64,000 bases of DNA from an uncultured virus (IMG/VR IMGVR_UViG_3300005253_000382) (lineage: Duplodnaviria; Heunggongvirae; Uroviricota; Caudoviricetes). The position numbers were made by a program, and so were the translations under genes. Below, one piece after another: positions 26,623 through 57,143 of the stretch; position 1 is the first letter of the stretch, and each line of letters opens with the position of its first letter. The stretch lies in IMG/VR virus record IMGVR_UViG_3300005253_000382, positions 1 to 64,000 of that record, one strand, 5' to 3'. The notes under the pieces were generated by a model. It did no database searches and was not told the origin of the DNA. It saw only the letters and a program-made list of their open reading frames with translations.

Positions 26623-26859
26623 GAGACTAGAATAAACAAAGGGGGCAAGGCGATGACAACAATCAACAAGCATTATATCTTACACCTTGCAGACGAAGAT
26701 GGCACAATTCTCGATAGTATCGACCTCTTCGAGTACAACCTTGATAAATCCATAGCACAGAGTGATATTTGCCATACCATACAATATGCCATTGAGGTTT
26801 GGGAACAACAGCAAGAGAAAAAAGGCAGCTAACCTAACAAATAGAATAAAGGAGGGATA

Positions 26860-27054
26860 ATGAAAAAAGGTAGCTTAGAAGGGCTAGCCTTGGATAGAAT
26901 AAAAGAATTATTAGAAGTGATTGAGCGTTCCATAACAAGAGAATGTGCGGACAAAGGCGAAGAACTTAAATCTGGCACTCACTTGTGTGATATTTCGGTA
27001 GCTAATACTGATGCCAAAAGATGGGTTAGGGCATTACTGGAAGAACTGACATAG
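26860..27054 (+). CDS. Hypothetical protein
   Basis: AAGGAGG SD. Confidence 0.65.
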   Translation: MKKGSLEGLALDRIKELLEVIERSITRECADKGEELKSGTHLCDISVANTDAKRWVRALLEELT

Positions 27055-27494
27055 GCGAACTATGAAGTAGCGAGTGATATTGAACTTAATATATGAAATA
27101 GCACCTTAACAATTGAATAGAGCCTGCTGGTGTCCTGTATATCGGTAATCCAGCTTGGATGATAGCTGATGAGCCAAAGGCACAAGCCCTCAATGTCCGT
27201 CTAGTTCAAAATAGCTAACCGCTTGACTATCTGGCCGGGGGTTGAGGTCCCCGGTCAGCCGTGAGGCGGTAAGTAAATAAAGGAGGGATGAGATGCCACT
27301 AACACCTGAACAACAAGAGTTTGTTAAGGAAGTAGATGAGTTCAAGATTCAATCACACAATGTACTAAAGGAAGCCCGGGAATTAGATGCTAAAGCCATA
27401 TCTATTATCAAACGCTTTAACAAGCTTGAGAAAATAATTAAGGATATGGCAAAGGAACACGGATTATAATACTCTAGCTGAGGAGGTTTAGAAG

Positions 27495-27707
27495 ATGACC
27501 CCGGAAAAGCGATATAAGAAATACCTGAAAGACCTGATTACTCAAGTAGAAATTCATCTTACTGATATAGATAAAATTATGAAACTACCTGAGAGCAACA
27601 AGAGAGGTCAACTTATCGCCAAATCGTGTAATAACTTGGATTTGGTGAAAGATATGGCAAGGCACTTTGGACTTGGTTTGCCCTTCAAAAAGAAAGTAGC
27701 ACCTTAA
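27495..27707 (+). CDS. Hypothetical protein
   Basis: GAGGAGG SD. Confidence 0.65.
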   Translation: MTPEKRYKKYLKDLITQVEIHLTDIDKIMKLPESNKRGQLIAKSCNNLDLVKDMARHFGLGLPFKKKVAP

Positions 27708-27884
27708 CAATTGAATGTTAAGGAAAGGAAGGGAAGATGTCGCCAACAATGATTAGGTATCTCAGGGACAATTACTGCCTACAGTTTGGACATTGTAAGC
27801 TCCGTTCTCACCCTTGCATCAAGAACCTGGAGGAAGTGAGGGTTGTATGTATGGAGTGTAAGAAATTATCGAGAGGAGGTTAGT

Positions 27885-27917
27885 ATGAAGAAGTATCAGA
27901 TAATATATGCTGAAAGG
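27885..27917 (+). repeat. Cassette 5' arm (MT-A70 N-terminus-like, MKKYQIIYA)
   Basis: ATGAAGAAGTATCAGATAATATATGCTGAAAGG; related copies at 29128(+), 36399-36421(-), 37571-37597(-). Confidence 0.8.
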
Positions 27918-27927
27918 GGAAGGTTTA

Positions 27928-28353
27928 ATGTTTGAAGTTAAATATAAGGCGCTGAGTTTTAAGCAACCTTGGGCGTGGTTGATGTGTAAGGGATTTAAGG
28001 ATATAGAGAATCGGAATTGGCAAACAAGATTCAGGGGGCGGATTTATGTCCACGCTAGTAAATCGCAATCAGATATGGACAAGGAGACTCTAGCTTTTAT
28101 GCTGAAACGATTGTCGAACAGGCAAGCTAGTGAGTTTATGCTTGCTTATAGCCGATTGACTTTTGGGGCGATAATAGGCGAGCTAAATATTACTGGATGT
28201 GTGGATTTACACCCTAGCCCGTGGTTCTTTGGAAAGTATGGTTTTATGGTTAGCGAGCCAGTCCTTTATGACAAGCCAATCCCGTGTAGGGGTAAACCTA
28301 GTTTTTTCACCCCAGAGCTAACTGAAGTGAGTATCTTTAAGTTGGGGCAATGA
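27928..28353 (+). CDS. ASCH domain protein
   Basis: KALSFKQPWAWL...GFKDIENRNW.T.FRGRIYVHAS; GAIIG; P.RGK. Confidence 0.9.
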   Translation: MFEVKYKALSFKQPWAWLMCKGFKDIENRNWQTRFRGRIYVHASKSQSDMDKETLAFMLKRLSNRQASEFMLAYSRLTFGAIIGELNITGCVDLHPSPWFFGKYGFMVSEPVLYDKPIPCRGKPSFFTPELTEVSIFKLGQ

Positions 28354-28372
28354 AGTAGAGAGTGATATAGAA
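28339..28372 (+). repeat. Cassette 3' arm (MT-A70 C-terminus-like, WGNEVESDIE)
   Basis: AAGTTGGGGCAATGAAGTAGAGAGTGATATAGAA identical (34 nt) to 36181-36214 on the minus strand. Confidence 0.85.
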
Positions 28373-28388
28373 ATTAAAGGAGGTCAAG

Positions 28389-28664
28389 ATGACAGATAAA
28401 CTGGTGGAGAAGTGCTTGTTGACACCTGAAGAAATGAAAGAGGCGTGGCTAAAAGCCTGTAGAGAGAATACTACACTAGATATGCTCAACTATCCGCAGG
28501 TCATAACCAAAGATCAACTAATCAAGGCCATCCCCATCATAGCCGAGGAGATAAAGAGGGAGTTGGAGTTAGAAAGCTACGGAGACCCTAGAGTTACTGA
28601 TTGGGTAAAAATCTCTTATAGTGATTGGCACACATTCTGGGAAAAATATAAAGGAGGTAAATGA
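28389..28664 (+). CDS. Hypothetical protein
   Basis: AAGGAGG SD; LLTPEE...KDQLIKA small phage family also seen at 34633. Confidence 0.65.
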   Translation: MTDKLVEKCLLTPEEMKEAWLKACRENTTLDMLNYPQVITKDQLIKAIPIIAEEIKRELELESYGDPRVTDWVKISYSDWHTFWEKYKGGK

Positions 28665-29095
28665 TGCAAGAGACTAAACAATTAGAGGAACAAATCAAGG
28701 TGGTGGCTGAGGCGAGACAACGGGCACAGAATGCAGTAGCAGTTAAGACCGCCTGTCAAAGAGAATGGGTGGACGAGAACAAAGATATGCTTGACATTGT
28801 TGTTGCTGTAGCACAAGAAGTAACCGAAGCCGAAGTCAAGCTCCGAGAACTCACACTCCAAGCCTATGCTGAGACCGGCAACAAAGCACCGGCAGTAGGT
28901 GTGGGTATCAGGGAAGTAACCAAGCTAGACTATGATGGCAAGGTTGCCTTTGACTGGGCTAAGTCGCACAAGATGGCATTGAAACTAGATGTATCAGCCT
29001 TTGAGAAGATAGCGAAGGCAGACACACCTGATTTTGTCAAAATCACTACTGAACCACAGGCTACAATAGCTACTGAACTTAATAAGGTGGAGTAA
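28661..29095 (+). CDS. Hypothetical coiled-coil protein (Gp157/Gam-like architecture, tentative)
   Basis: Coiled coil followed by a KLD.S.F.K beta module. Confidence 0.45.
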   Translation: MMQETKQLEEQIKVVAEARQRAQNAVAVKTACQREWVDENKDMLDIVVAVAQEVTEAEVKLRELTLQAYAETGNKAPAVGVGIREVTKLDYDGKVAFDWAKSHKMALKLDVSAFEKIAKADTPDFVKITTEPQATIATELNKVE

Positions 29096-29161
29096 ACGAA
29101 CCCATAATCGCCATGAGAGCGAGGTAGAGAAGTATCAGATATATGCTGAAAGGAGGAGGAA

Positions 29162-29437
29162 TTGAAAGAACTTGAACTTGAAGACCTTACTAAGCAAGAG
29201 TTAATAGAGTTAATCAAAAACAATATATACTTTGTTTTCAGTTTCAAACAGCGTGACCTCATAGAGATTAAATGGAAATCGAAGAATAAGGAAGCTAGTA
29301 GAATTATGGGCGAAGCCGTAGAGGAGCAAGCTCTTTACTCAGAGGGAACAGATATGACCAGTCTTGCAAAATGGGATGAGGCAAGCCCTAGCCAAAGCAG
29401 AATAATCACGCACTACAATCTAGGAAAGAGCCGGTGA
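29162..29437 (+). CDS. Hypothetical protein following a cassette 5' arm
   Basis: TTG start after AAGGAGGAGG. Confidence 0.6.
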   Translation: MKELELEDLTKQELIELIKNNIYFVFSFKQRDLIEIKWKSKNKEASRIMGEAVEEQALYSEGTDMTSLAKWDEASPSQSRIITHYNLGKSR

Positions 29438-29457
29438 GTCATATCGGCTTTTTCTTT
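29425..29457. terminator. Bidirectional terminator between convergent blocks
   Basis: AAAGAGCCG...CGGCTTTTTCTTT. Confidence 0.6.
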
Positions 29458-29472
29458 ACCTTCCAAGCCCAC

Positions 29473-29703
29473 TTAGTGCTTGGTTACACGAGAGGCATAC
29501 TCGTCAAATAGCTCCCTGATTTTATTCTTTTCTGCCCACGGAGGCGGTTCCTTATACTCAGCTATACATTCAGACCAGGGGCAATTCAAACATTCTCCCT
29601 TAACCTTGACAATCTTACCGTTTATCACCTTTTTAATGAGGTAATGTTTACAACCCTGATAGTCTTTATATGTGGGTTCTATGTCTTTCTTTTCAGTAAT
29701 CAT
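29473..29703 (-). CDS. Hypothetical Cys-rich protein
   Basis: GC...CLNCPWSEC. Confidence 0.55.
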   Translation of the reverse strand: MITEKKDIEPTYKDYQGCKHYLIKKVINGKIVKVKGECLNCPWSECIAEYKEPPPWAEKNKIRELFDEYASRVTKH

Positions 29704-29822
29704 TGTCCATCTTTCACCACACAGTTCTCATCTACTATAACCTGGGCATAATAAAGTAAAAGCTCCAATACAGTCGGTCCTCTAGGTTTTTAGTCCCGGC
29801 ATCTTTTACTTTAGGCATAGCC

Positions 29823-30131
29823 TTAATGTTTTCGCTCCAATATCGTGACGATGCGTCTAGTTGTTTCAATCCCCATGTTGATAGTCTTATTCATTGATTC
29901 CATGTTTCCCTGCATCAGCATCACACCTTGCTGTATTTCGGCATGTTGTTTGTCATTTTGTTTAATTAGGGTAGCAACATCGTCAACCAAATGGTGAAAA
30001 TCGTTTGTTAGAAATTTCCTCCATTCTTTCTGGAAGTCACGAAAGTCCTTTCCCAATTTCTCGACGGGGTCTTTCTTCTTTTCCTCGCTCATTGTCCTAG
30101 CTCCTTTTTTTTTATAGCACCTTTTTATCAA
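29823..30131 (-). CDS. Hypothetical coiled-coil protein
   Basis: Likely start MSEEKK after AAGGAG. Confidence 0.6.
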   Translation of the reverse strand: MIKRCYKKKGARTMSEEKKKDPVEKLGKDFRDFQKEWRKFLTNDFHHLVDDVATLIKQNDKQHAEIQQGVMLMQGNMESMNKTINMGIETTRRIVTILERKH

Positions 30132-30188
30132 GTCTGTCTAACTTGATAAACTTGTCAGCCCTGACAATCTGTAGCTAGTATAACACAT

Positions 30189-30327
30189 TTGACCAAAAGT
30201 CAACACCTGGAGCAATTATTTTGTGCCTGAGTGAAAATATTTTTGGTGATTTTCTTACTTTTTCTCACTATTCCTTACATTTTCGGGGTATTTTGAGTAA
30301 AAAGTCAAGTTATTGACACTTTGTCAA
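30189..30327. promoter_or_regulatory. Divergent promoter region with two TTGAC-N5-GTCAA palindromes
   Basis: TTGACCAAAAGTCAA 30189-30203; TTGACACTTTGTCAA 30313-30327. Confidence 0.55.
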
Positions 30328-30384
30328 CCATATCTTGACATCCCCTAGTTTAGGAGTATGATCCACATTAAAGGGGGTGATATT

Positions 30385-30708
30385 ATGGCAGAGACACCAA
30401 CAATTAGTTGGGCTGGAACATCCGGGGAAAAGTACCTCTACTGGATTTATGCAATTGGAACCTCTTTTAAAGCTGAACCTGGTAACTATATCTTCGCCAA
30501 AGAAACCAAACCCAATACATGGGCACCAGTTTATATTGGTCAAACGGGCAACCTCAGTGAACGCTTAAATAACCATGATGAAATGCCATGTATCAAGCGA
30601 AATGGGGGCACCCATATACATGCCCATATCAATAATGCTGGGGAAACTACACGTTTAGCAGAAGAAAGAGACTTGGTTTCAAAATGGTCGCCTCCCTGTA
30701 ATGGATAA
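30385..30708 (+). CDS. GIY-YIG nuclease family protein (moron-like)
   Basis: PGNYIF...VYIGQTGNLSERL...EERDL; own promoter TTGACA-16-TATGAT at 30335-30362. Confidence 0.8.
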   Translation: MAETPTISWAGTSGEKYLYWIYAIGTSFKAEPGNYIFAKETKPNTWAPVYIGQTGNLSERLNNHDEMPCIKRNGGTHIHAHINNAGETTRLAEERDLVSKWSPPCNG

Positions 30709-31076
30709 ACAGACTAACTAATAACATCAGGTTTATTTGTTTCATCAACAATTGTGCCAGGCGGATTACCAAGACACGTTTCAACTGCGTGACCGTTCCT
30801 ATCTAGCCACTCTAAGAAGTCATCCATTTTGCTGTCAGGAACGGTATACTCCATACTGTTGTTGATAAGTAGATGATTACTAGGCATACTTTCACCTCCT
30901 TTCTACGTGTGTCAAGGGGAACATCACCGCAGGTTAGTAATACTTCAGGATAGTTCATTTTCCCTCTGAGGTGTTACGATTGGAATAACCAGTCGCCAAC
31001 ACCTAGAGCAAAATCTTATAATATCGCATGTAATCCATAAATGGCCGTATCCGCATATAGGGCAAATTCTTATCAT

Positions 31077-31394
31077 TTAATCCTCCTCTGGGATAAAGAT
31101 TACCCATCCCTTCTTACCACACTGCCTTATCAAATTATCGGGATTATGTATATCAAGGGTTTCTTCGTGATTCCCCTTAGCCTCAATGACAAGAGACCAT
31201 GTAGTTGTAGCTTCTACCTTTGTGCCATAACTCTTTTTCAATTCCCTCAACATCGCATCAGCACCAGCTTCATAAGCAGAAAATTCAGGTTGCTCATTCC
31301 AACTTTCCTCGCCAAAATCTCCAGTTTTATGAAAGGGATTATCCCAATTCTCTTTAGGTCTCCAACTCATTTTCTCCTCCTTTCCGTTACTCAT
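31077..31394 (-). CDS. Hypothetical protein
   Basis: WRP..W.NP...AYEAGADAML...G.VIFIPE small phage family. Confidence 0.65.
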   Translation of the reverse strand: MSNGKEEKMSWRPKENWDNPFHKTGDFGEESWNEQPEFSAYEAGADAMLRELKKSYGTKVEATTTWSLVIEAKGNHEETLDIHNPDNLIRQCGKKGWVIFIPEED

Positions 31395-31443
31395 CAGGCT
31401 TAATCAGCCTGCAATATAGATTACATTGTGTTAAAATAAAGTT

Positions 31444-31881
31444 ATGGGAATACAAAACCCCGCAAATTTTTGCACTGATTGCGGTGTGATTATATTGAAG
31501 GAATCCAAGCGTTGTTATAGTTGTGCCACTAAACATAAATGGGAACAGGGAATTATGCATACGCTCAGGGGGGCTCAACATCCCCAATGGAGAGGGGGTC
31601 GCTTCATCAGTCTTGGATATGTACTTATTTGGTATCCGCAACACCCCCGTGCTTCTAAACAGGGGTATGTTAAAGAGCATATCCTTATATGGGAGCAATA
31701 TCATGGTAAGCCTGTGCCGAAGGGGTGGATAATTCATCATCTGAATGGGATTAGAAATGATAATCGGCCGCAAAATCTGGTTGCTTTTCCAGATAGGAAA
31801 CATAAACATATTCTTCAAGCTAAGGCTAAACGCATTCAAGAATTGGAAGCTCTCCTTAATCATCAATCACAACTCCTCTGA
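31444..31881 (+). CDS. HNH homing endonuclease inserted antisense
   Basis: C..C..C..C, WRGGR, GYVKEHILIWEQ, IHHLNGIRNDNRPQNL; leaderless promoter. Confidence 0.9.
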   Translation: MGIQNPANFCTDCGVIILKESKRCYSCATKHKWEQGIMHTLRGAQHPQWRGGRFISLGYVLIWYPQHPRASKQGYVKEHILIWEQYHGKPVPKGWIIHHLNGIRNDNRPQNLVAFPDRKHKHILQAKAKRIQELEALLNHQSQLL

Positions 31882-32001
31882 GCGAATTAGCCCCCTATCT
31901 TTTAGCCATTGTATGAACTCTTTATAATCAACTCCACCCCAAAGATATTGCATTATCTTGAGCTTCATTTCTTCTTCTGTTGGGCGTTTATCTTCTGTCA
32001 T

Positions 32002-32349
32002 TTACTTCTCCTTATCTAATACACAATATAGAGCTAGGGCAGGATTTACCTCTTCTCTGCTTAGGCTTACCTTGCAAGCCCAATCAACTAGCAGTTTATA
32101 CAGTGCTTCTCCTCCATAGTGGAACTTATAGACTGGCACAGCATGCAGGAACAGGTTTCCTAATGCCTCAATGCCAGTAAGGTCAGGCGGTGCTTGATGG
32201 GTAGACCCATCTGGATATTCCCAGTAAGGCTGTCGGCACACAATGCCCCCTTCGTAGGCAGTCTCTTCTTCGGGGAAAGTTTCAAGAGGATGATATACAA
32301 GCCCACACCCTTCCCAGAACCTTTCTTCCTGCTCTTTTGTTGGTTTCAT
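32002..32349 (-). CDS. Hypothetical protein (ABA-sandwich/NinX-like, tentative)
   Basis: PPD...LF..AVP...PALAL pattern also in 39944. Confidence 0.45.
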   Translation of the reverse strand: MKPTKEQEERFWEGCGLVYHPLETFPEEETAYEGGIVCRQPYWEYPDGSTHQAPPDLTGIEALGNLFLHAVPVYKFHYGGEALYKLLVDWACKVSLSREEVNPALALYCVLDKEK

Positions 32350-32527
32350 TTCTTCCTCCTTATCTTACAAGCTGGTTGCTCACCATGCCATTCACATAAT
32401 TTCATATACATCTCACAGTTAGATTGTAGGAATTTCTTACAGGGTACTGTATCTCTAACATGCTGATTGGGGGGCTTGTTATCCCCTGATAGATATTGCG
32501 GGCAAGTGATATGTATGTAACAGTTTT

Positions 32528-33400
32528 TCATCTTTTCTCATATTCCACGCAAAATGTCTCAAAATCATACTTGGCGAATGTCCAGAATTGGTTACACCAT
32601 TCAGCTAGTCTTATATATTGTTTCTCTCTTGGGGTGTTCTCATGCCTCATAATGTAAGGGCGACAGTCGAGCTTCCGCAGTAGATTACAACGTTGTAAAT
32701 CTTGTTCGAAGGTAGTATTAAAGCCGACCAAAACATAGAAGAAAATATACTTCCGCTTGTAGTGTTGGCGAAGCAGGGCAATTTTCTCTCTAACTATTGG
32801 CTCTAATTCAGGATAATCAAAGGCAAATCGAACACCGCCCTTTAACCTAACTTCATTTAGCAACTTAATTATGCGAACTGTCAATAAGCGAATGTCCATA
32901 CCTTGATTCCAATCAATAGCCAGTGATTCTCTTATCGCTTGCCTGGCTATCTTTTCAAAGTGGTCTTCATCGGCATAGGGATTATTGTCATAAAGCACCA
33001 CCCATTCATTTTTACCATCCCAAACATCATAAATGTCCCCAATAGCATGCCAATATCCTTCCTTGCGTCGTACAATACAAAAGGGGCAATTGCGGATACA
33101 CCCCAAAGAAGTATAACCGTAGTTTATATGTGGCTTTACGCCCTCAATCTCTTGTGGTAATTTTATATCTAGGTCGAACCCACTACCGCCAGCCATAATA
33201 TTGGGGTGCAACCCTAATAAATTCTCTACTTTTTGTTTATTCTTGGTGAATATACAAGAGGCATAAACCTTGTCCGCATTATAGATATCCATAGGTGAAC
33301 CCCATAGAACACTATCGCCTTGCTGAGCGTGCCACATGGCTATTTTATGGAGTGCGATATTGGGTAGCTTACTATCTATATTCAAAAGCAATATGTTCAT
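32528..33400 (-). CDS. Radical SAM protein (phage type)
   Basis: CIRNCPFC motif; NQGMDIRL; YVLVGFN. Confidence 0.88.
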   Translation of the reverse strand: MNILLLNIDSKLPNIALHKIAMWHAQQGDSVLWGSPMDIYNADKVYASCIFTKNKQKVENLLGLHPNIMAGGSGFDLDIKLPQEIEGVKPHINYGYTSLGCIRNCPFCIVRRKEGYWHAIGDIYDVWDGKNEWVVLYDNNPYADEDHFEKIARQAIRESLAIDWNQGMDIRLLTVRIIKLLNEVRLKGGVRFAFDYPELEPIVREKIALLRQHYKRKYIFFYVLVGFNTTFEQDLQRCNLLRKLDCRPYIMRHENTPREKQYIRLAEWCNQFWTFAKYDFETFCVEYEKR

Positions 33401-33440
33401 ACTTCCACCTTTACTCGCTTCTTCCTATCACCAACTAGAG

Positions 33441-34430
33441 TTATTCATATAATTTACCACCATACATAAGGGCATGTCCCAGAATCGGTATCTGCTCGGT
33501 CAGAAATCTCTTTTTACCTAGAAAATGAACTAATGAAAAGCCATGCACCCAGTTGGGATTTTGTATCCAGTCAGGGTAGAGTGAGCATAAACAAAAGTTC
33601 TCCCACCAACCCCATACGCCAAACCTATCTCGCTTATAGAAAGAACCACCGCGATGACAATGCCCACATACCCCACAGCCACCATGCTTCTCATACATTC
33701 TCTTGGCTGTATATCCAGAGTGAATACTGGCAATATCACCATGAAGAACAAGGAATATATCGTTTATCATTAACCCGCATTCATAAGGGATATAATCAAT
33801 CTCATAAGCGTCTAAATCAAAAAGCTCTGTAATGCTGAGGCAAGTTAGAGAGGATAGTTCGGGGGCTTTTGTCCATAGAAACTTCTGCCATCTCTCTTCG
33901 TGATTACCTGCTATTAGTTTCTTCTTTGTGTTGGGCAGTATCTTCTTATGTCTTTCAAACATTGCCTTGGTATTATTGACATCAGATTGTAAGTCAACTA
34001 CTCTTTTCGGGTCTTTATCGAACTTTGAAATCTGGTAGAAATCGCACATATCCCCACCATATATCAAATAATCAGGTTGGACTTCCACTAATAAATCTTC
34101 TACTAATTGCAAAACCTTATTGTCCTGATAGGGATTATGGGTATCTCCAATAATCGCTACTGTCTTCAATTCACCATTAAGATGTAAATTGAGGGGTACG
34201 TTGGATTTTACCCCCGTTGAAGAAGGGATGGGATATGTCGCCACTCTTCTTAATTTGAAATGGCGATAAACAGCATCCTTGAAGGTGCCAATCGTAGAAT
34301 AACCACAAGTTTCTGACCAGCTTTCGATTTGCTCCCTGGTAGCAGTGGGATAGAAAGCCATAATCTCTTCGGCTAAAGCAGTCCCTCTTTCTGGTAAAAA
34401 ACTATCCATGTCTACTCCATTTTTCACCAA
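33441..34430 (-). CDS. Calcineurin-like metallophosphoesterase
   Basis: GDTH, GGD..D, GNHE, HG, GHCH motifs. Confidence 0.9.
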   Translation of the reverse strand: MVKNGVDMDSFLPERGTALAEEIMAFYPTATREQIESWSETCGYSTIGTFKDAVYRHFKLRRVATYPIPSSTGVKSNVPLNLHLNGELKTVAIIGDTHNPYQDNKVLQLVEDLLVEVQPDYLIYGGDMCDFYQISKFDKDPKRVVDLQSDVNNTKAMFERHKKILPNTKKKLIAGNHEERWQKFLWTKAPELSSLTCLSITELFDLDAYEIDYIPYECGLMINDIFLVLHGDIASIHSGYTAKRMYEKHGGCGVCGHCHRGGSFYKRDRFGVWGWWENFCLCSLYPDWIQNPNWVHGFSLVHFLGKKRFLTEQIPILGHALMYGGKLYE

Positions 34431-34632
34431 GCAGACAGCTTACTATAAAACCAATAAGAAAAAGAAGTAGACCGAATGTAATGATTTGTTCTAATGTGGT
34501 TTCAATCATTTCTTGCCTCCATTAAGTTTTTTCCTCTTAGCTACTGGGTTAAATTTCCTGTTAAGGTTCTTTCTAGCAGAGTCTAAATTCCCAGTAATTA
34601 CAATACCTAGTTCCTTTAGTTGCTCTTTGCGT

Positions 34633-34956
34633 TTATCCATCTAATCCCGCCTCTTTTAATGCTTCTCGGTATTTATGATAGTCAGGAACAAGGTAAGCAG
34701 TATTATCCATTCTCTTAACTTCCTTACCTACGCCCAAAAGTGCTTTCTTGAGTTGGGCTTGGGCTACCCTTGCGAAACATGAATCTAACTCACTAGGCTT
34801 TTTTAGTTTCCATTCACGAGTCCTATTCCTTGCCCATATCTTCCTGCTTTCTATCGCATAAGCCTCTCGTTCTATTTCTATCTCCTCATCTCTCAGTCTT
34901 ATCATCTTAACCCTCCTCTTTGCCAAGTGGCATAATATTAACGAATTTTTCACCAC
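34633..34956 (-). CDS. Hypothetical protein
   Basis: AQAQLKKA family; start probably MIRLRD. Confidence 0.55.
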   Translation of the reverse strand: MVKNSLILCHLAKRRVKMIRLRDEEIEIEREAYAIESRKIWARNRTREWKLKKPSELDSCFARVAQAQLKKALLGVGKEVKRMDNTAYLVPDYHKYREALKEAGLDG

Positions 34957-35779
34957 CCACTAGCTTAAACGACCACCGTAAACCATCGGGGTTGACATCT
35001 CTATCCACCCATGATTTGCCCTTCAGGATTTTTAGAATCCCACCCTCCATAGAAACAACCATTCTTGGTAATTGCTTGGCCCAATCTTTTCCATAAGGCA
35101 AGTCTCTCCCCTCTGGCTTCTGTAGCATAACAATCCATATACCAGTAGTTAGCATATCCCTAAGTTCTCTAAGTAAAGTTCTAATCTCCCAAATGTTTTC
35201 AGGGGATTCTAGGTAGTCAATAATATTGAGAGCATCTGGTTCACCCACATCGGCAAAATCAAAACTCTTGGAACGAATTAAATCGTCTGGCCACTCTTGA
35301 AAGTTGGAGTATTGAGATAATCTCTCATATAATTCTGCCTCACTATTCTCGGTATCAAACAAAACAATCTTATGCTTCTTCCAGTTAAGGTCTACAATGT
35401 TATGAGCAATAGCGGTCTTGCCTGCTTGTGGCGACCCCCCAAAAATAATAACGCTCCTGCGTGGGGTTTTCACATACTCTTCCAAGCCAAAGGGATACTT
35501 AATATCAAACCATCCCCCAGGATTAGCGTGCTTAAAATTCAGTATGTCGTAATCCCTATCAATAACCTGATAAAACCTGTCTCTCTTTTTAAGTTTGGGC
35601 TGTTGTTTGGTAGTTTCATAATAGAGTTTCTTGGAAAGAGCATCCCTGGTTTCCCTCTCCCTCCAATCATAGTATCTGGCAATATCATCAAAGGTGAAAC
35701 GCTCATCTAGCCGCAAGAGAAACCACTCATCAACCCTTAGTGATACCTTCTTATATACTCCGTCTGTGGGTTCATCCAT
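34907..35779 (-). CDS. RecA/DnaB-fold ATPase, putative replicative helicase
   Basis: Walker A GGSPQAGKT, FDTE, Walker B NIIDYL, LQK. Confidence 0.8.
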   Translation of the reverse strand: MDEPTDGVYKKVSLRVDEWFLLRLDERFTFDDIARYYDWRERETRDALSKKLYYETTKQQPKLKKRDRFYQVIDRDYDILNFKHANPGGWFDIKYPFGLEEYVKTPRRSVIIFGGSPQAGKTAIAHNIVDLNWKKHKIVLFDTENSEAELYERLSQYSNFQEWPDDLIRSKSFDFADVGEPDALNIIDYLESPENIWEIRTLLRELRDMLTTGIWIVMLQKPEGRDLPYGKDWAKQLPRMVVSMEGGILKILKGKSWVDRDVNPDGLRWSFKLVGGEKFVNIMPLGKEEG

Positions 35780-35783
35780 TTAG

Positions 35784-35887
35784 TTGTATCTCCTTGTATA
35801 TTTTGTATCCGCTTGGGTGTGTTTGTATGAAAGTTGTATAGAATTTGTATGAGTTTTGTATGGACAAGGCTAGAATTCTCAATACAA
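35784..35887. repeat. TTGTAT iteron array, candidate replication origin
   Basis: TTGTAT at 35784, 35794, 35803, 35823, 35834, 35845, 35856 plus an inverted copy at 35882. Confidence 0.6.
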
Positions 35888-35905
35888 GACCTCCTATATA
35901 CTATA

Positions 35906-36178
35906 TTAAATAATATCTTTCTTATAAGAGAGCTTCTTCTTCTGTTCGATAACCTTTTTAAGATTTTCTTCTAGGGATACGATTCTTTCCTGTAATCGCA
36001 TAGCTTTTCTATCAAGATGTATGTGAGTATGTGTATGAATAGTTTGTTTCTCAGGAATCTTTTCCTCTTCAGGGTATGTGGGGTAGGACTGAAACTTACT
36101 TCTCCAAGCCTCCAGCCTAGCTCTGGCTTCGTATATTTCTACCCATTGTTCTCGGGTGAAAAGGGGTTTAGTATTCAT
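35906..36178 (-). CDS. Hypothetical protein
   Basis: ATG overlaps the end of the 3' arm (GAATTATGA). Confidence 0.6.
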   Translation of the reverse strand: MNTKPLFTREQWVEIYEARARLEAWRSKFQSYPTYPEEEKIPEKQTIHTHTHIHLDRKAMRLQERIVSLEENLKKVIEQKKKLSYKKDII

Positions 36179-36180
36179 AA

Positions 36181-36214
36181 TTCTATATCACTCTCTACTT
36201 CATTGCCCCAACTT
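36181..36214 (-). repeat. Cassette 3' arm copy
   Basis: 34-nt exact match to 28339-28372. Confidence 0.85.
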
Positions 36215-36389
36215 TGATATGTCCATCCTCATCCCATCTCGGTTCACCGAATGTTTGACTATAATAGAGTTCTACCATAGTAAAATGTCCCTTCTTTTTA
36301 TGGTGTATTGCAGCAACTCCCATAGCATTTTTACCCTCAGTCTTCCAATCGCACTCAGTACACCAAGCATTAGCGTCTAGTAGGTGCAT
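36195..36389 (-). CDS. Small C2H2-like zinc protein, cassette cargo
   Basis: CTECDW...HH...H; flanked by both arms. Confidence 0.65.
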   Translation of the reverse strand: MHLLDANAWCTECDWKTEGKNAMGVAAIHHKKKGHFTMVELYYSQTFGEPRWDEDGHIKVGAMK

Positions 36390-36401
36390 CTTCTCCTCCT
36401 T

Positions 36402-36560
36402 TCAGCATATATTATCTTCTTTATCTCTCGGCATTTTCCCTATTAACATATCTTCTATGTCCTGTTTCTTTAAGGTAATATCTACCCATTCTCCATTTGA
36501 GTGATAATTCTTACTATGTCGGATTAAGTATCGGGCGATTATTTCTAAGAGTATTTTATC
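36402..36560 (-). CDS. Hypothetical protein ending in the cassette 5' arm
   Basis: MDKILLE...; its TGA stop is the TGA of TATGCTGA. Confidence 0.5.
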   Translation of the reverse strand, partial: DKILLEIIARYLIRHSKNYHSNGEWVDITLKKQDIEDMLIGKMPRDKEDNIC

Positions 36561-36933
36561 CATCCTCCATCTCCTTAATTTTCTCTTTAAGGATAGCTTC
36601 AGTCTGAACATCATCACGTTTTTTATAGGTATTTGAGCGAATGGTTAATTCTTCGAAACCCTTTTGTCCCAATCTGGTTATCATATATTCGGTGTAATCA
36701 GCACGCTCCTCTCCTCCCCATCGTCTATGACACGGCATATTGCACAGAAGGGTTACATTGTCATCGTCATATCTTGTGGCCTCTCTGCTCCGTCCGTAAT
36801 AATGGCTCACCCCCAGGTTGTATAAGGAACCATCCTCATCGTATTGTCTACCGCACTTCTGGCAGGTGTAGTTAAATCTAAACCTCTGTATCTGCGTAAA
36901 TAATCGGTCAGTTTTTCTCAATTTGATTTTCAT
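36556..36933 (-). CDS. NinG/Rap-like recombination endonuclease
   Basis: CQKCG...SHYYGR...TRYDDDN...LC..CH...Y...LGQ. Confidence 0.75.
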   Translation of the reverse strand: MKIKLRKTDRLFTQIQRFRFNYTCQKCGRQYDEDGSLYNLGVSHYYGRSREATRYDDDNVTLLCNMPCHRRWGGEERADYTEYMITRLGQKGFEELTIRSNTYKKRDDVQTEAILKEKIKEMEDG

Positions 36934-37562
36934 AACTCTATATCCTTTACTTCATTGCCCCAACAATCCCAACCCTTTGTTGTTGTTGGGTTATTTTGTA
37001 TTAGTATAAAGTCCACCATTCCCATTGGAATATGTTGAACCCTCACATTACCGAGCCGCTCTTTAATTTCTTGTGTGCGGTGAAGGTGATATTCCCCGTG
37101 GTTCACCCTCGGATAATGTTGATATACTAGCACATCGCAATCTTGTTCTAGTATCGGTTCTATATCTGAATAATAGACATACCGCTTGCTCTGTGGGCTG
37201 TTACGATGAACTGATTTAATCTCCAAACCATTATCGGGGTCAAAAAATAGCAAATCAGGTAAATCTTCTTCATCAATATCCTCTAGGTTGGGGTAATACT
37301 TTCGTATAGGGATAATGCCTGCCTTCTGAATAGCTTTTATATCCCTTATACCAGAAGTTACTAACCCCCGAAGGCAATCGTATATCAGGGTATCTTGCCT
37401 TTTACTCCCATCAAACAAGTAGTTAGTTTTCCTCCCATCCCTTTTGCCATCATCGGGGGTAAGCATCCAGCAAATATCTATCGTATCATAGATATTTGAA
37501 ATGTCTGTTAGGAGTAGGTATTTATTATAATCATTAACATCGGCCACATATTGGTTTTTCAT
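36930..37562 (-). CDS. Uncharacterised protein (MKNQY..DVNDY.KY / FFDPDNGLE family) fused in frame to MT-A70-like tail
   Basis: Ends KGWDCWGNEVKDIEL; preceded by cassette 5' arm. Confidence 0.7.
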   Translation of the reverse strand: MKNQYVADVNDYNKYLLLTDISNIYDTIDICWMLTPDDGKRDGRKTNYLFDGSKRQDTLIYDCLRGLVTSGIRDIKAIQKAGIIPIRKYYPNLEDIDEEDLPDLLFFDPDNGLEIKSVHRNSPQSKRYVYYSDIEPILEQDCDVLVYQHYPRVNHGEYHLHRTQEIKERLGNVRVQHIPMGMVDFILIQNNPTTTKGWDCWGNEVKDIEL

Positions 37563-38017
37563 CCCCTTCTCCTTTCAGCATATAGTATCTTCTTCATTCC
37601 ATTCCTTTATAATTTCGTCATTCTTTGGGGGGCGGGTATCTTTTGTCCAGCTCGGCGACCAGCTTATCGCTTTCTCTTAACACCTCTTCCATCGTCCCAC
37701 CAGTAATATCTACCGTGCAATCGTAGGTCTTAATTCCCTTTACTGACGTGCTGATGTTTACCCTATAACGCTTTGATACTTCCACTTTTGTTCCTCCTTT
37801 TCAGATTAGGGCATTTATCCATTATTCCTCCCTTCCTACTTACTATCCTTTTCAAACCGAGCAAGAATCTTCTTGAGATATTTCATTGCATTCTTCTCGG
37901 CATCTTTTATTACCAACAAGATTTCAGGGCTTGCCAACAGATTGCCCTTTTAACGCTGTTGCAATCCTTCGGACTTCCTAGCTTTATATCCAGAAGCACG
38001 GACTCAGGCTAGGCAAT

Positions 38018-38307: not shown

Positions 38308-38742
38308 TTATTGCCCCTCGATATATTTAAGGAACTCGTCAGCCCATCTTCTCATATCAGATATGCCGATAAGTTTAGCACACGCCAAATCTTTGGCATA
38401 GGAAAGAGATACCGCCTTGTCCTTCTTGTCATGCTTGATTTCCTGTGGGGCAGGTACTCTCTTTAAGTCTTTATCTATCTGTGCTTGGTCAGGGGTTTCT
38501 ACTTCAGGGGGTGGCACTGGTTGAGGAAGTGCACCCGCAACTGACTTGGCATTGGCGACATAAGGTTTATTATTATAGGTCTGCCAGTCTAATTGCACTG
38601 CTTGCCCCTGTTGGAATATAGGGTGGAGACTTTCACGCTTCTTGGCGATTTTAATCTTCTCTCCCCCACCTTGCGGTGTTACCCATAAATTACCATATCC
38701 GTCTACTTCAGTATGTCCTACTACTATAATTGTTTCAGCCAT
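38308..38742 (-). CDS. Putative ssDNA-binding/recombination protein
   Basis: OB-like N-terminal half, Pro-rich linker, helical tail; tentative. Confidence 0.4.
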   Translation of the reverse strand: MAETIIVVGHTEVDGYGNLWVTPQGGGEKIKIAKKRESLHPIFQQGQAVQLDWQTYNNKPYVANAKSVAGALPQPVPPPEVETPDQAQIDKDLKRVPAPQEIKHDKKDKAVSLSYAKDLACAKLIGISDMRRWADEFLKYIEGQ

Positions 38743-40388: not shown

Positions 40389-40739
40389 TCATTTTAATAG
40401 TTCCTTATTCTCATATATGTTGCCGATGACTTCACACATTAAAGCCATATCAGCCTTAGTTATTCCGTGCCAGCCACCGTGAATAGGTTTCAAATACCAT
40501 CCTGCTAAATTATCGTGCCATTCAATTATGTATAAAATATCTAACCTTCGGACAATATCTTTTTGGTATGCCTCCTTGCCGTTCTTGTCTTTGAGTCCTG
40601 TGAATTCTTGGTCATCACCCTTTCGGCAACCAGATAATTCTCGTCCCACGAAGCCATCAGGGAATATCCCCCAATAATGGAACATCTCAAACTCGCCATT
40701 TACATCTAATAATGGTTGTCTGAATTTAATTTCTCTCAT
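40389..40739 (-). CDS. YopX family protein
   Basis: MREIKFR...FTGLKDKNGKE.Y..DIV...EVIGNIYEN.ELL. Confidence 0.9.
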   Translation of the reverse strand: MREIKFRQPLLDVNGEFEMFHYWGIFPDGFVGRELSGCRKGDDQEFTGLKDKNGKEAYQKDIVRRLDILYIIEWHDNLAGWYLKPIHGGWHGITKADMALMCEVIGNIYENKELLK

Positions 40740-41334: not shown

Positions 41335-41437
41335 AATAGAAGGGGGGAGCTGGTGCTGTGAATTCCATCGCCACTAGGATTTGCAACAGTCTTATACAAC
41401 TAATGCTGACTCACCCTCAGCACTCCCCCACTCTATT
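41335..41437 (-). ncRNA. Structured 5' leader of early operon
   Basis: AATAGA..GGGGGAG..TGCTG / CAGCA..CTCCCCC..TCTATT long-range stem after a boxA-like motif. Confidence 0.45.
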
Positions 41438-41462
41438 CAATTATTAAAGTCCTTTATTACAT

Positions 41463-41491
41463 AAAATATCACAATTTTTAGTCATTGTCAA
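41463..41491 (-). promoter_or_regulatory. Sigma70-type promoter of early/replication operon
   Basis: TTGACA-17 bp-TATTTT. Confidence 0.7.
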
Positions 41492-47406: not shown

Positions 47407-48771
47407 TCACTCGTGGGGTATCTCTAAAGCATCTGTTACAGTTAATCTCCTGAAATAAGCATCTTCTATCTGTGCGTTCAGAAATTCTATTATTCCCGTC
47501 TGGGTACTATCTAAATTAAAAATAGCAAAAGTAATTGAAGTAACAGCTTCTATGAGGTTAGCAATATTTGTGTCTCCTCCACCTACTCGTCCTACTCCCC
47601 CACCAGATGTACCTACCAAGATAGGACTTGGCAGAATAGCCGACTTCCCAAACCTTATGTCCATATCAAAAACAAGCTGGCCGCCACGTCCAGGCACTTG
47701 AACATTCCTTTTAAGGTATCTAACATTACCAGTCCTCGTATCGTTCTGGCGTGAGTCCGTAACCTTAATGAAATCCCACACCTCCTGTCCTACGTTCATT
47801 GGAACCTTCACCGCCCCAACCTCACTATCCAGCTCATAGGTTTCTATAATAGCCGGAGCAATAGAGGCTGCTATACCCGTAGAAGTCAATCTTAAATAAG
47901 TAGTATGGGTCTGAGGGAACAACGCAAAACTGGTAGCACTGGTAGCACTAGCCGTAAATTGAGGGGTATGTGAAGGGTGAGAGGAGACCACTTCTTTATT
48001 AGGATTAACAAACCTGTTGATAAGCTCCTTATTAAACAAGGTATGCTCTCCCGATACAGCCAGTTTATATTCATAATCGAATACAGCCCCTGAAATAACA
48101 GGGTCGAAGAAGTGTAACGCCTCATCATCTTCAACCCTCATCTTCTCCCCAGTCCACGACAACAATCTTTTAACCCTACTCAAACGGGAAGAGTTTAACG
48201 GCACCCTGAAAGCCTCTTTGGGTAGAAGGCCGTCTACTACCCCATCCAGACTATCAAATGTTGTCGTGAAATTGGTGTAATTAGTGTATGGAGCTAAGGT
48301 TGCATTAGCTACCGCACTGATTAAGGTCTGAACAGTTCGTGCATCCCCCTCAGTTAAAGTTAGTTCCGATTCAGCAAGGTCTAACCCTAACAAATTAGGG
48401 ACACCGATTAAATTTAACTGGCACACCAGAATCCCTTGAGCAGAGAAGAAGCGCTGGTTCTTGACAAATACAGGGGCAGTAGGGGAGTATTCATCTCCCT
48501 GAGTAGGGTCATTATACCCATACGAAATAACACCCCTGTATCTCTCAAAGTCTATCGTAGTAAGAACGCCATCGGAGTTATCCAGTAAAACAGTAGCTAT
48601 TCCATTGTCTTCTGTTTCTGTATGACTGATTGAAAGGATACGTGTTTTGGTGTAGGTCTGTGTAGACTGTCCCGCCCTTGAAAGCGTAATTTTCCAAATA
48701 GGGTTTTGGGGTAGCCCATCTACCCCAACGGAAGCCTGATTACTCGTAAGTGTTGCACTTAAAGTACGAAT
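47407..48771 (-). CDS. Tail protein, probable non-canonical ATT start
   Basis: Frame open 115 codons upstream of the GTG at 48426, back to ATT CGT ACT TTA AGT (xRTLSATL), 9 nt after GAGGGGG. Confidence 0.6.
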   Translation of the reverse strand: MRTLSATLTSNQASVGVDGLPQNPIWKITLSRAGQSTQTYTKTRILSISHTETEDNGIATVLLDNSDGVLTTIDFERYRGVISYGYNDPTQGDEYSPTAPVFVKNQRFFSAQGILVCQLNLIGVPNLLGLDLAESELTLTEGDARTVQTLISAVANATLAPYTNYTNFTTTFDSLDGVVDGLLPKEAFRVPLNSSRLSRVKRLLSWTGEKMRVEDDEALHFFDPVISGAVFDYEYKLAVSGEHTLFNKELINRFVNPNKEVVSSHPSHTPQFTASATSATSFALFPQTHTTYLRLTSTGIAASIAPAIIETYELDSEVGAVKVPMNVGQEVWDFIKVTDSRQNDTRTGNVRYLKRNVQVPGRGGQLVFDMDIRFGKSAILPSPILVGTSGGGVGRVGGGDTNIANLIEAVTSITFAIFNLDSTQTGIIEFLNAQIEDAYFRRLTVTDALEIPHE

Positions 48772-48777
48772 TTTAGA

Positions 48778-49833
48778 TTACCCCCTCGTATACAACCTCT
48801 TGCTTCTCGGTTTGCTGCCACCTAGTTCATTGATAACTTCGTTATATAGTTCTCTCTTCCATCCCATATAATCAGCCCAAGTCCCGGGCCCGCCTATGTT
48901 AATAGTGTTTATGAAACTTCTGGAATCACTCATTGCAGCCCTGGCAGCCACAAGGCGTCCAAATATTTCCTCATCCTGATCCCTTAAAGTGTTCTTCCTG
49001 AATGTTAAAACCTCAGCCGTATTTGAGGCGTCACTGTCTAATCCCGGGAAGAAACTAATGGTAGCTGTATTACTGGCTATCGTGGTGGCAGTAGTTACAG
49101 TATAAACGAACCTCTGATTTTCAAGATGAAACTCCTCCCCTATCTCAATCGTACCGGCTCCCATTGTTGCTGATGCCAGGGAAGTAGCCCCTGCTGTTGT
49201 AGTAGTTGCCACCTGCCCCGTTAAACCAACCAACTGTGAGATTTTGTGGGCGACTGCAAACCTGACTAAAACATCTACATCAGGTAATCGGTCGAGCGTA
49301 GAATCACTGTCAGGTATCTGGTCTACCATTATCTCAATAACGTCATCCAATTCCTTCCAGTTCCTCTTTTCACCTACGGGATATTCTACGGAATCAATCC
49401 ACATATAGGGCATAAAATCCCCTATGAATATCTGCCTGTTATTGGTACACCTTTTATTATAGATTCGATAGGCTTCATTGGCACTAAAAATATCCTTGCT
49501 AATTGAGAATATGGAGGTTGAATCCTGAGCTAGAACCACAGCGTAAGTGTTTTGGCTAAGATTATGCACTACCTTTTCGTCAGTGGCATCCCCCGCTAAG
49601 AATTGAGCCTTCACAGAGTCGGTTAATTTATCGGTTGTACCGGTGACATCATCCCCAAACCTTGACTCCAATTTGAAGATAACATCCACTAGATGAGGAC
49701 GATAAGTAGAGAACTTCTTTAACCCTTCTTCAATCCAGTAATCCCATTCCACTGTTCCAGCAACAGCATTACCAGTATCCTGATATATCTGCTCAACGAG
49801 ATTACGGAATTCAGAATATGTTCGACTTCCCAT
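48778..49833 (-). CDS. Head-tail adaptor-like protein B
   Basis: Helical N-terminus (RTYSEFRNLVEQ), IDSVEYPVG; counterpart of 4199-5518. Confidence 0.55.
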   Translation of the reverse strand: MGSRTYSEFRNLVEQIYQDTGNAVAGTVEWDYWIEEGLKKFSTYRPHLVDVIFKLESRFGDDVTGTTDKLTDSVKAQFLAGDATDEKVVHNLSQNTYAVVLAQDSTSIFSISKDIFSANEAYRIYNKRCTNNRQIFIGDFMPYMWIDSVEYPVGEKRNWKELDDVIEIMVDQIPDSDSTLDRLPDVDVLVRFAVAHKISQLVGLTGQVATTTTAGATSLASATMGAGTIEIGEEFHLENQRFVYTVTTATTIASNTATISFFPGLDSDASNTAEVLTFRKNTLRDQDEEIFGRLVAARAAMSDSRSFINTINIGGPGTWADYMGWKRELYNEVINELGGSKPRSKRLYTRG

Positions 49834-49883
49834 CTGTCACCTCTTCTTTGCCGATTTCAATGTTTTCTTTATATGTTTTGGCA

Positions 49884-50009
49884 TTATTTCTTCCTCGTAA
49901 ATTCCTTTAGTTTCTTCTCGGATAACCCTGTCTTGGTTTTCTTCCCTGCCCTCCGCCTTGAAAGCTCGGCTCCAAAGAACCTTCTCTGCTTTGTACTCTT
50001 AGCTGGCAT
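49884..50009 (-). CDS. Small basic protein
   Basis: Hand translation MPAKSTKQRRFFGAELSRRRAGKKTKTGLSEKKLKEFTRKK. Confidence 0.6.
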   Translation of the reverse strand: MPAKSTKQRRFFGAELSRRRAGKKTKTGLSEKKLKEFTRKK

Positions 50010-50538
50010 TACTCACCTCAATCAATAAACTACTCCTGTCACTATTCAAGGCACACTTATAACTCTCAACAACATCCTCAGCCTTGTCTAGTTTAATGAC
50101 ATCCACGTTCTTTAATATGTCCCTGAAGCCTGAAGTGTAATCAGAGCAATGCTGTATCCCGGGATATAAAGGTTCGGTTGCTCCTACTGCTGTACGTATG
50201 ATTACTTTAGGATTGAACTCTCCATTGCTCATTTCACTTATCTTGTCCAGATGATTGACTAGCTGGTTCATTGCCAGGATTAAGAAATCAAATCTCGGAT
50301 AAATGCTAATCGGGATATACCCCTCTAAAGATAACCCGATACTCATACCTAATTGGGTATCTTCCATAATTCCAACCTCTAATCTCTTGTCCATTGGTAC
50401 ACCTTTTAACGTGTCATACATACCACTCCCCGAATACTCCACTGTCTGCCCTAAGAATATCGTTCTGGGGTCACTCCCTAAAAGGGTCATTGCTTTTGTC
50501 AGTTCTTCATACATCAAAAATTCACCCACTGCCCGCAT
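49999..50538 (-). CDS. TPP-dependent enzyme E1-beta/transketolase pyrimidine-binding domain
   Basis: IFLGQ.V, IMEDTQLGMSIGLSL.G..PI..PRFDFL..AMNQLVN, GIQH. Confidence 0.88.
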   Translation of the reverse strand: MRAVGEFLMYEELTKAMTLLGSDPRTIFLGQTVEYSGSGMYDTLKGVPMDKRLEVGIMEDTQLGMSIGLSLEGYIPISIYPRFDFLILAMNQLVNHLDKISEMSNGEFNPKVIIRTAVGATEPLYPGIQHCSDYTSGFRDILKNVDVIKLDKAEDVVESYKCALNSDRSSLLIEVSNAS

Positions 50539-51065
50539 CCGTGATGAGGAAAGCCCCTTTCATAGCTATATCTCCATACATCCTTTGTTGGAGTATTCAC
50601 ACTAAAACCGTTATCTTCCACCACAAATTTAATCGGTAACTCGTGTCCGTTAGCATACTTAACGCATTCGTGAAAAACCCCTGTCTCAGCCCCCATATCA
50701 CCGATGAATACCCATACCTTATTAGGAGCATTCCGCCTCTTTAGTCCCAATGCCACACCAAGGGCTATCGGTAAACACCCCCCCACAATAGAAGAAGTGA
50801 AAAACTTATGCTCTTTACTATTGATGTGCATTGACCTGTTATCCAGTATCTCAGCCCGTAACCATTCCACACCCATCCCCTTTAATAAGGCGTGGTAATG
50901 ACTCCTATGAGTGGAGAATACCCAATCATCAGGGTGAATATTCCTGAATATGCTAATCAACTGCTCCTCATTCCCCTTACTCAAATGCACCGGCGAATGT
51001 ATCTTCCCACCAATGTAGGCAGTTTTAATCCCTTCCTCAAAGTCTATTAAGGTCTTGGTGTCCAC
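50514..51065 (-). CDS. TPP-dependent enzyme E1-alpha (minimal)
   Basis: HLSKGNE, STHRSH, IVGG, GD...EDN TPP-binding motif. Confidence 0.88.
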   Translation of the reverse strand: MDTKTLIDFEEGIKTAYIGGKIHSPVHLSKGNEEQLISIFRNIHPDDWVFSTHRSHYHALLKGMGVEWLRAEILDNRSMHINSKEHKFFTSSIVGGCLPIALGVALGLKRRNAPNKVWVFIGDMGAETGVFHECVKYANGHELPIKFVVEDNGFSVNTPTKDVWRYSYERGFPHHGCGQWVNF

Positions 51066-52267: not shown

Positions 52268-52341
52268 GTAATGCTCCTGCGGGGAAGGCTGCTACTAAAT
52301 GTAACCTATTAGCCTTACCAATGTCAGTTCCGATTGCTTCT

Positions 52342-55495: not shown

Positions 55496-55504
55496 TCCTT
55501 CTCC

Positions 55505-57034: not shown

Positions 57035-57143
57035 TCCTCCTCCTTATCAGGTATCTCCCCTACTCCATGACAGGTTTTACAAAGAATTCCTGAATGGTCT
57101 GGAACAAGCCATTTCCAACCTTGCCCATCGCAATCGGGACACT

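Follow-up and report, generated by a model that had tools for sequence, protein, structure and literature searches.

We analyzed a 64,000-nucleotide (nt) stretch of DNA, hereafter the window, comprising bases 1-64,000 of the 66,101-base linear record IMGVR_UViG_3300005253_000382, which is an uncultured virus of the class Caudoviricetes. In this window, three unrelated genes are each framed by the same two short sequences (the 5' arm and the 3' arm), and these arms are the two ends of an MT-A70 family methyltransferase gene. The window also encodes a terminase, a capsid-family gene, a DnaB-like helicase, a NinG-like nuclease, and numerous small unannotated genes. The three framed genes, or cargos, sit exactly where an earlier reading of the same DNA (the original prediction) had placed them (Table 1), and both arm cores are indeed shared among them: the 5' core has 3 matches (chance mean 0.01) and the 3' core also has 3 (chance mean 0.02), a count that 0/100 shuffles reached in either case. 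Over 34 nt, the 3' arm at 28339-28372 shows 100% complementarity to the one at 36181-36214, and all 5' arms of the window share the predicted break point at which GCTGA gives way to AAGG. The arm copy at 36402-36417 lacks the ATG that had been attributed to it, and two further arms had been overlooked, i.e., a 5' arm at 29128-29149, for whose open reading frame (ORF, 29162-29437) a 3' arm was sought and none was found, and a decayed 3' arm at 27062-27086. We read the sequence from 27062 to 27095 as a putative eroded head-to-tail joint because three other loci (L047, L083, and L086) have like joints. The window arms are all confined to two groups of small genes, each with a promoter-like site at its head (26594, +, and 41491, -).

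Table 1. Framed units, isolated arms, and the adjoining NinG-like gene in the window (RBS, ribosome-binding site; aa, amino acids)
Feature	Position	Strand	Remarks
5' arm, unit 1	27885..27913	+	First 29 nt of the MT-A70 gene; reads MKKYQIIYA
RBS linker, unit 1	27914..27927	+	Purine-rich, 14 nt; mode elsewhere is 12 nt
Cargo 1, 141-aa ASCH-like protein	27928..28353	+	Stop codon inside the 3' arm; ends LGQ
3' arm, unit 1	28341..28371	+	MT-A70 end in the WGNEVESDIE frame; the other two frames have stops
5' arm, unit 2	36402..36417	-	Eroded to 16 nt; contains the TGA stop of the upstream ORF 36402-36617
RBS linker, unit 2	36390..36401	-	12 nt
Cargo 2, 64-aa protein	36195..36389	-	Conserved Cys/His; ends inside the 3' arm (VGAMK)
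3' arm, unit 2	36174..36212	-	Final ATGA is the start of ORF 35906-36178
5' arm, unit 3	37575..37597	-	6-nt deletion
RBS linker, unit 3	37563..37574	-	12 nt; letter-identical ahead of 7 different cargos
Cargo 3, 210-aa protein, unnamed family	36930..37562	-	In-frame fusion to MT-A70 tail (GWDCWGNEVKDIEL)
3' arm, unit 3	36929..36976	-	Long form with a 3-nt deletion; the NinG-like gene begins at its ATGA
NinG/Rap-like endonuclease gene	36556..36933	-	phrog_5034, E = 1.3e-15
Unpaired 5' arm	29128..29149	+	3-nt deletion, then a 12-nt RBS linker and ORF 29162-29437
Decayed 3' arm	27062..27095	+	Follows ORF 26860-27054; runs into a 9-nt 5'-arm remnant

Sequence comparison establishes the origin of the arms. 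Intact MT-A70 genes with the same DNA ends were found in related contigs, as the original prediction had suggested from the translated arms, and in alignments the window arms track these genes base for base until the break. The arms, which comprise 30-40 bases from each end of the gene, correspond to the first 9-10 and the last 11-16 codons of phage MT-A70 members; the 5' arm of unit 1 is identical across 29 nt to the intact gene starts in loci L006 and L011, and the window 5' arm breaks inside what we take to be the Asp codon of the DPPW motif. All of the intact relatives tested (5/5) match PF05063 positions 1-172 (E = 3e-20 to 4e-28). Among 21 virus records, PF05063 was matched in 7, always at full length and never in the window's genome; it was unmatched both in the 66,101-base record and among the 89 window ORFs, so that the window indeed holds no intact MT-A70 gene. 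As a separate observation, the MT-A70 gene at L005:1497-2025 has an in-frame TGA at the Trp position of DPPW, its other Trp codons being TGG, which reflects either a broken gene or a sequencing error.

Arm-pattern scans of viral, metagenome, and prokaryote genome sequences yielded at least 174 loci. The metagenome scan gave at least 124 stretches, 80 of these with full flanks, and the unit, joint, and family counts that follow are counts among the matches listed. The alignment-based arm caller returned 2 matches per 249,600 shuffled bases at a score of 24, and a threshold of 26 was used afterwards. The arms proved to occur well beyond this contig, with many different cargos and some intact MT-A70 genes. 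Their carriers fall into several terminase groups, and no gene is common to all of them, the commonest family being present in 12 of 18 records. Cultured phages gave no framed cargo (best E = 0.2, no record spanning 80% of a joint), and NinG-selected loci, mostly distant ones, had arms in 0/19 cases. One scan of prokaryote genomes gave 6 matches with MT-A70-type ends in which the cargo unit was not seen, and therefore no host is indicated. In the arm-chosen loci, no other candidate linker emerged: no non-arm 14-mer occurs in more than 8 contexts, versus 143 for the arm.

The number of framed units called was at least 140, or 96 after near-identical ones had been collapsed. A script assigned 75 of them to the non-MT-A70 class, from which 3 were reassigned to MT-A70 by eye; counted among the remaining 72 are the three units of the window, an empty frame (L150), and a unit that is half MT-A70 (L118). 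These 72 units make up 62 tblastx families with a median interior of 328 nt, confirming that many unrelated cargos share the arms, and only 9 of the 62 families have more than one unit. Pfam matches were obtained for 9 of the 60 cargo ORFs scanned: N6/N4 methylase (twice), Mom, Dam, radical SAM (under the cut-off), GNAT, PAPS reductase, DUF4326, and DUF3326. Arm-less relatives of cargos are present in the same phages, with the window ORF 32528-33400 among them. The cargo is not always a single gene, as some units hold two. Three individual cases deserve mention. In the empty frame (L150:259-330), a 5' arm is joined to an MT-A70 3' end with 3 nt between them. In a nested remnant (L023:4305-4490), a 5' arm leads in frame into the beginning of a second gene (89% to the cargo of L079), which is then cut, with a different sequence continuing. 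Protein P0261 consists of the C-terminal half of cargo 2 with its arm tail, joined to an N-terminus that we take to resemble the start of a LAGLIDADG homing endonuclease.

The anatomy of the units differs in two respects from that originally proposed. First, the junction is not fixed: at the 5' end, the window's break point (position 29) was found in only 35/72 units, followed by position 19 in 9 and position 31 in 6, with the rest at 13 other positions (i.e., 15 positions besides the window's own), and the 3' break is spread, with 47/72 in an 8-nt zone, all of these positions being taken from alignment ends and uncertain by a few bases. Second, a ready-made RBS is present at the junction, but it belongs to the arm and not to the cargo. 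After a break at position 29, the start codon lies 12 nt from the RBS in 26/32 units versus 30/158 native genes, and one 15-nt linker is identical ahead of 7 unrelated cargos; because of this spacing and this identity, we consider the RBS part of the arm, with the cargos joining at their ATG. At the other end, every reading frame meets a stop in the 3' arm, which also overlaps the start of the following gene; by a heuristic call, the longest ORF of 60/72 units terminates within this arm. The arm bases are conserved although the cargos read them in three frames. Deletions of 3-6 nt within arms are tolerated, and the outer end of the 5' arm is at position 0-1 in 90/130 cases. Relatives of cargo 3 stop natively about two residues past DFILIQ, but 7 of the 19 closest ones, the window's included, end in arm-derived tails, with several offsets and two frames represented; such tails were also seen in 8/21 aligned relatives of cargo 2 (by eye) and in 4/120 relatives of cargo 1. 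Given these varied tails within cargo families, it is whole ORFs that are framed, and their joining or trimming has happened repeatedly.

The fixed RBS spacing, the three-frame stops, and the ATGA overlap, together with the confinement of the window copies to two operons headed by promoter-like sites, could also be explained if the arms were a translation-coupling or regulator-binding module spread by gene conversion, with shuffling a side effect. However, any RBS and stop would serve that end, which leaves the retention of MT-A70 sequence and the pairing of the arms unexplained. In addition, no promoter-like or terminator-like site was found within any arm (0/41 promoter-like sites lie inside one), and there was no conserved structure: when 11 arms and joints were folded against shuffles, 10 had z values between -1.0 and +1.9 and one had -2.2. 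We therefore regard a purely expression-related role as very unlikely.

Pairing of the two arms is strong. In 17 whole records (a set that leaves out G012, a duplicate of the G011 array, as well as G003, G015, and G018), the 5' arm of a cargo is followed by a 3' arm in 21/24 cases, or 15/18 without the array, against a null mean of 3.0 for the latter; 0/20,000 shuffles reach the observed value. Across the loci, 72 of the 3' arms come after a 5' arm, 25 come after another 3' arm, and 14 have no arm within 1.4 kb upstream, while 7 of the 5' arms have no arm downstream. The units also form arrays, with 37 distinct 3'-to-5' head-to-tail joints in 29 loci, 25 of them via an ATGA/GTGA overlap, and with six consecutive units in G011.

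The single fixed slot of the original prediction was not borne out, as the 131 genes downstream of 3' arms represent 101 families; given this variety, arm-to-arm swapping alone does not explain the spread. Intact MT-A70 genes do occupy the same slots as other cargos, as had been anticipated. The NinG-like slot, the window's included, has 9 arms upstream (1 MT-A70 and 8 others), a second recurrent slot, upstream of another family, holds 3 MT-A70 genes and 6 others, and at the DNA level MT-A70 and a cargo form allele pairs in L008/L081, L100/L130, and L102/L109. Conversely, the same cargo is found between unrelated flanks beyond the arms in three sets of loci (L001/L107; L027/L054/L145/L151; L061/L062/L113), with L001 and L107 having their common cargo at about 90% and unrelated flanks on both sides, and one methylase cargo has four different downstream neighbors. 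Mosaic breakpoints between related loci fall at the arms, the shared side being about 70-97% alike and identical only in L053/L054, where L053 equals L054 minus exactly one unit (a 64-nt run, then 119/119). Finally, a gene located behind a 3' arm in one phage is, in another, attached to a 5' arm through a short shared word (L050 to L023, L082 to L144), as would be expected if downstream neighbors are recruited by deletion.

Some of these patterns might arise passively. Illegitimate replacements near gene boundaries could keep those MT-A70 ends that hold the neighbors' stop or start, and the arms would then be relics that move nothing. MT-A70 is a frequent accessory gene (7/21 records, see above), junctions are variable, arms erode, copies decay, and slots are highly varied; TGA or TAA stands at the end of the two most frequent 5' breaks, just ahead of an RBS, a point that microhomology deletions could perhaps reach independently; and boundary exchange is the standard model of phage mosaicism (PMC3029335). 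Yet such scars do not yield 3'-5' head-to-tail arrays of six or several copies per genome, nor do they account for the identical 15-nt linker ahead of 7 unrelated cargos, the same armed cargo in unrelated neighborhoods, or arm bases conserved though read in three frames. On balance, we find it unlikely that the arms are only relics.

A further possibility is that the arms are recognized by a dedicated host or helper enzyme acting in trans (a site-specific recombinase, a transposase, or a reverse transcriptase), the units being non-autonomous elements or integron-like cassettes. This would suit cargos that span from the start codon to about the native stop, the strong pairing, the often exact outer ends (90/130), the recurrence of ATGA at joints, and the new cargo brought by nearly every unit. 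Enzyme searches covered 21 records, only 10 of them at least 90% complete, and did not extend to the host. In agreement with the predicted lack of a visible integrase, no integrase is shared by the carriers: PF00589 was matched in 1/21 records, which is neither the window's genome nor the array record G011 (49% complete), and the IS607-type serine recombinase PF00239, the IS200/605-type HUH transposase PF01797, and the reverse transcriptase PF00078 were each matched in 0/21, although these records may be fragments. Moreover, arms and joints fold no better than shuffles, with 5 joints giving z values of 0.05 to 1.88, so that an attC-type hairpin is not supported, and three array loci (L023, L054, and L079) had no Rfam match. 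Inner junctions that are scattered and small deletions inside arms that are tolerated speak against such an enzyme as well, and we consider its involvement rather improbable. The same low credence is given to a related version in which the MT-A70 ends are recognition ends for a host or helper system that captures start-to-stop ORFs in one step. If it were true, trans-acting capture that inserts at ATGA overlaps would amount to a phage gene-cassette factory without integrase or hairpin, and would give a working model for making whole-ORF cassettes.

We consider it probable that the MT-A70 gene ends have been co-opted as gene-boundary linkers for general recombination. The 5' arm with its 12-nt linker gives any ORF an RBS, and the 3' arm supplies a stop in any frame and passes translation on via the ATGA overlap; a framed gene therefore fits any such slot and leaves the operon undisturbed. 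Judging from the loci compared, the arms appear to serve recombination, and homologous recombination of the ordinary kind, or strand annealing, across the 25-45 bp of an arm would account for the exchange, gain, and loss of units, using whichever phage or host recombinase is present. In the 21 records, annealing recombinases were matched as follows: RecT in 2, Rad52 in 1, ERF in 0, and AAA_24 in 3 (2 over the cut-off). A RecT-like gene is present in G011. The weakest step concerns the birth of a unit. Here, we infer a microhomology deletion that would fuse a 3' arm to the final codons of a neighboring gene, or a 5' arm to the beginning of that gene, followed by a capture in which a crossover anchored in one arm would be closed by microhomology at the RBS/ATG, with selection keeping the whole-ORF products. 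Most likely, such arms allow entire genes to be exchanged, inserted, and stacked in these phages with no enzyme devoted to the task.

Several points weigh against this linker explanation. The precision of whole-ORF capture and the diversity of nearly one cargo per unit are what it explains least well, and if units were born one end at a time, half units and recurring cargos might be expected to be more numerous than they are. The slots show almost the same variety as the cargos (101 families for 131 downstream genes), and indels in 18/53 cargo 3' arms outside the pattern selection indicate arm erosion. The use of arms for the selection of loci inflates their apparent conservation; when records were instead picked by capsid similarity, excluding those with arms already known, 1/33 had arms, in a set that left out six known arm carriers and short contigs and in which many of the 33 were fragments or distant. 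None of RecT, Rad52, ERF, and AAA_24 was recognized in the window's genome. A recombination event, an excised circle, or an empty allele of the window phage is not among the observations, and the loci as a whole gave no clean empty-site allele and one uninformative pair. In addition, L053 and L054 come from one assembly, and their difference could be a graph artefact.

The linker explanation also has to be set beside known systems. Integron cassettes are promoterless whole-ORF units with little spare DNA, arranged in arrays separated by a repeat (attC), with a linked tyrosine recombinase (IntI). The units described here resemble them in being promoterless whole-ORF units stacked in repeat-separated arrays; they differ from them in that the arms have no hairpin site or linked tyrosine recombinase, the crossover is variable, the repeat is of coding origin, and stand-alone units outnumber arrays. 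The PeSL cassettes of the T4-type phages RB49 and phi1 offer another parallel, as short repeats in accessory regions bracket small unrelated ORFs. Their shuffling relies on patches of less than 50 bp; the authors attribute it to general recombination without a dedicated integrase and draw a comparison with integrons (Arbiol et al. 2010, PMC2839356). In our case, too, short repeats bracket small unrelated ORFs and no dedicated integrase was found. In contrast to PeSLs, which are described as units of a strong sigma70-like promoter plus a stem-loop terminator, the arms here have neither promoter nor terminator, derive from the coding sequence of a single gene, are of two distinct kinds, and act at translation; mini-circles have been shown for PeSLs, while the present units are known from sequence comparison.

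A further parallel is that of Susskind-Botstein linkers, short conserved boundary sequences that allow module exchange and keep placement and expression (PMC2839356, PMC3029335). The arm system would work in the manner of these linkers and of PeSL shuffling. The arms have the corresponding features, i.e., a sequence shared by the boundaries of unrelated genes and breakpoints at the linker. The use of a coding stretch as a recombination site has a described precedent (PMC2568036), and effector-immunity arrays of type VI secretion system (T6SS)/Rhs loci are reported to grow by homologous recombination around a conserved coding stretch that anchors replacement or insertion of unrelated modules, with homology-facilitated illegitimate recombination also proposed for array growth, a precedent for anchored capture (PMC5361080). 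As described there, the T6SS/Rhs anchor lies in a working gene and the cargos are of one functional class (PMC5361080), whereas here the parent gene is destroyed, both of its ends are used, and the cargos are unrelated accessory genes. By the features tested, the arm system is thus not a PeSL, an integron, or a known transposon; it is probably a variant of linker-mediated gene shuffling in which the parent gene and intermediates are visible. No account of MT-A70-end linkers was found in the literature searched, which lacks most subscription journals.

That linkers mediate gene shuffling in phages has long been proposed, but well-documented cases are few and we know of no explanation for where linkers come from. 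In the present system, the parent gene, the intermediates (arms without a partner, eroded joints, and an empty frame), single units, and arrays can be placed side by side across phages with different terminases, and the ends of a dispensable gene would provide a shared plug format for a pool of accessory genes that includes several DNA-modifying enzymes (N6/N4 methylase, Dam, and Mom). To our knowledge, the birth of promoterless whole-ORF cassettes is an open question for integrons; with defined parts of 30-45 bp, cassette birth becomes testable. The arms may also be used as a tag for retrieving accessory genes from metagenomes, and they explain spurious shared tails (GAMK, LGQ, and EVESDIEL) on unrelated proteins.

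With regard to the window's own cargos, cargo 1 matches phrog_3193 (E = 1.7e-41). Its ASCH label is weak on direct comparison (E = 0.0083, below the curated cut-off), but its relatives carry PF04266. A subset of the ASCH relatives (48% to 86% identity) shares the extra ends MFE[AV]KY and EVS[VI]F[KR]L (27928-27945 and 28317-28340 in the window); a second, nested arm pair around this cargo, suggested by these shared protein ends, was rejected, with no copies found elsewhere in the loci. The description of cargo 2 as a Zn protein holds as far as its conserved Cys/His residues, but no family was matched. Cargo 3 yielded only a weak lead to a methyltransferase-like fold (TM about 0.5), and queries of Atlas for the function of cargo 3 and of ORF 38308-38742 returned only unnamed clusters and weak fold leads.

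Read evidence consisted of contigs from three DNA runs of one study, one of which may be the source of the record. A joint at 27913-28343, present in all three runs, was considered as a variant of the phage and rejected, a loose end in X2/X3 being equal to the flank of another phage's intact MT-A70 gene (L002). With respect to excised mini-circles, a single contig of low depth connects 36419 back to 36182, but this signal is also produced by array joints in other phages. Numerous loose contig ends were seen in the YopX gene (40572-40611) and probably reflect a conserved motif shared by other phages.

Further observations concern the organization of the window. The small-gene block at 26653-29437 is on the plus strand within an otherwise minus-strand genome, and ORF 29162-29437 ends at the strand switch. 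The 34-nt 3' arms at 28339 and 36214 are identical but in opposite orientation, and a 7.8-kb segment could invert between them. An 18-22-nt motif, which we assume to resemble a boxA antitermination site, is repeated at 27101-27118 (+), 27699-27716 (+), and 41431-41463 (-), downstream of the two strongest promoter-like sites, namely, those heading the small-gene operons. Two related capsid-like genes (12302-13177 and 61436-62329) occur in the one record, a 116-nt repeat lies between HNH genes at 20727 and 59351, and the IMG/VR record that agrees with the window at the compared loci has 40,995 bases; the 66-kb record may be chimeric through assembly or may unite two phage structural modules. Lastly, a cluster at 47407-60581, which comprises three radical SAM genes, a GHMP kinase, a cupin, split transketolase/E1-like genes, and a family 2 glycosyltransferase, likely represents a sugar or surface modification pathway.

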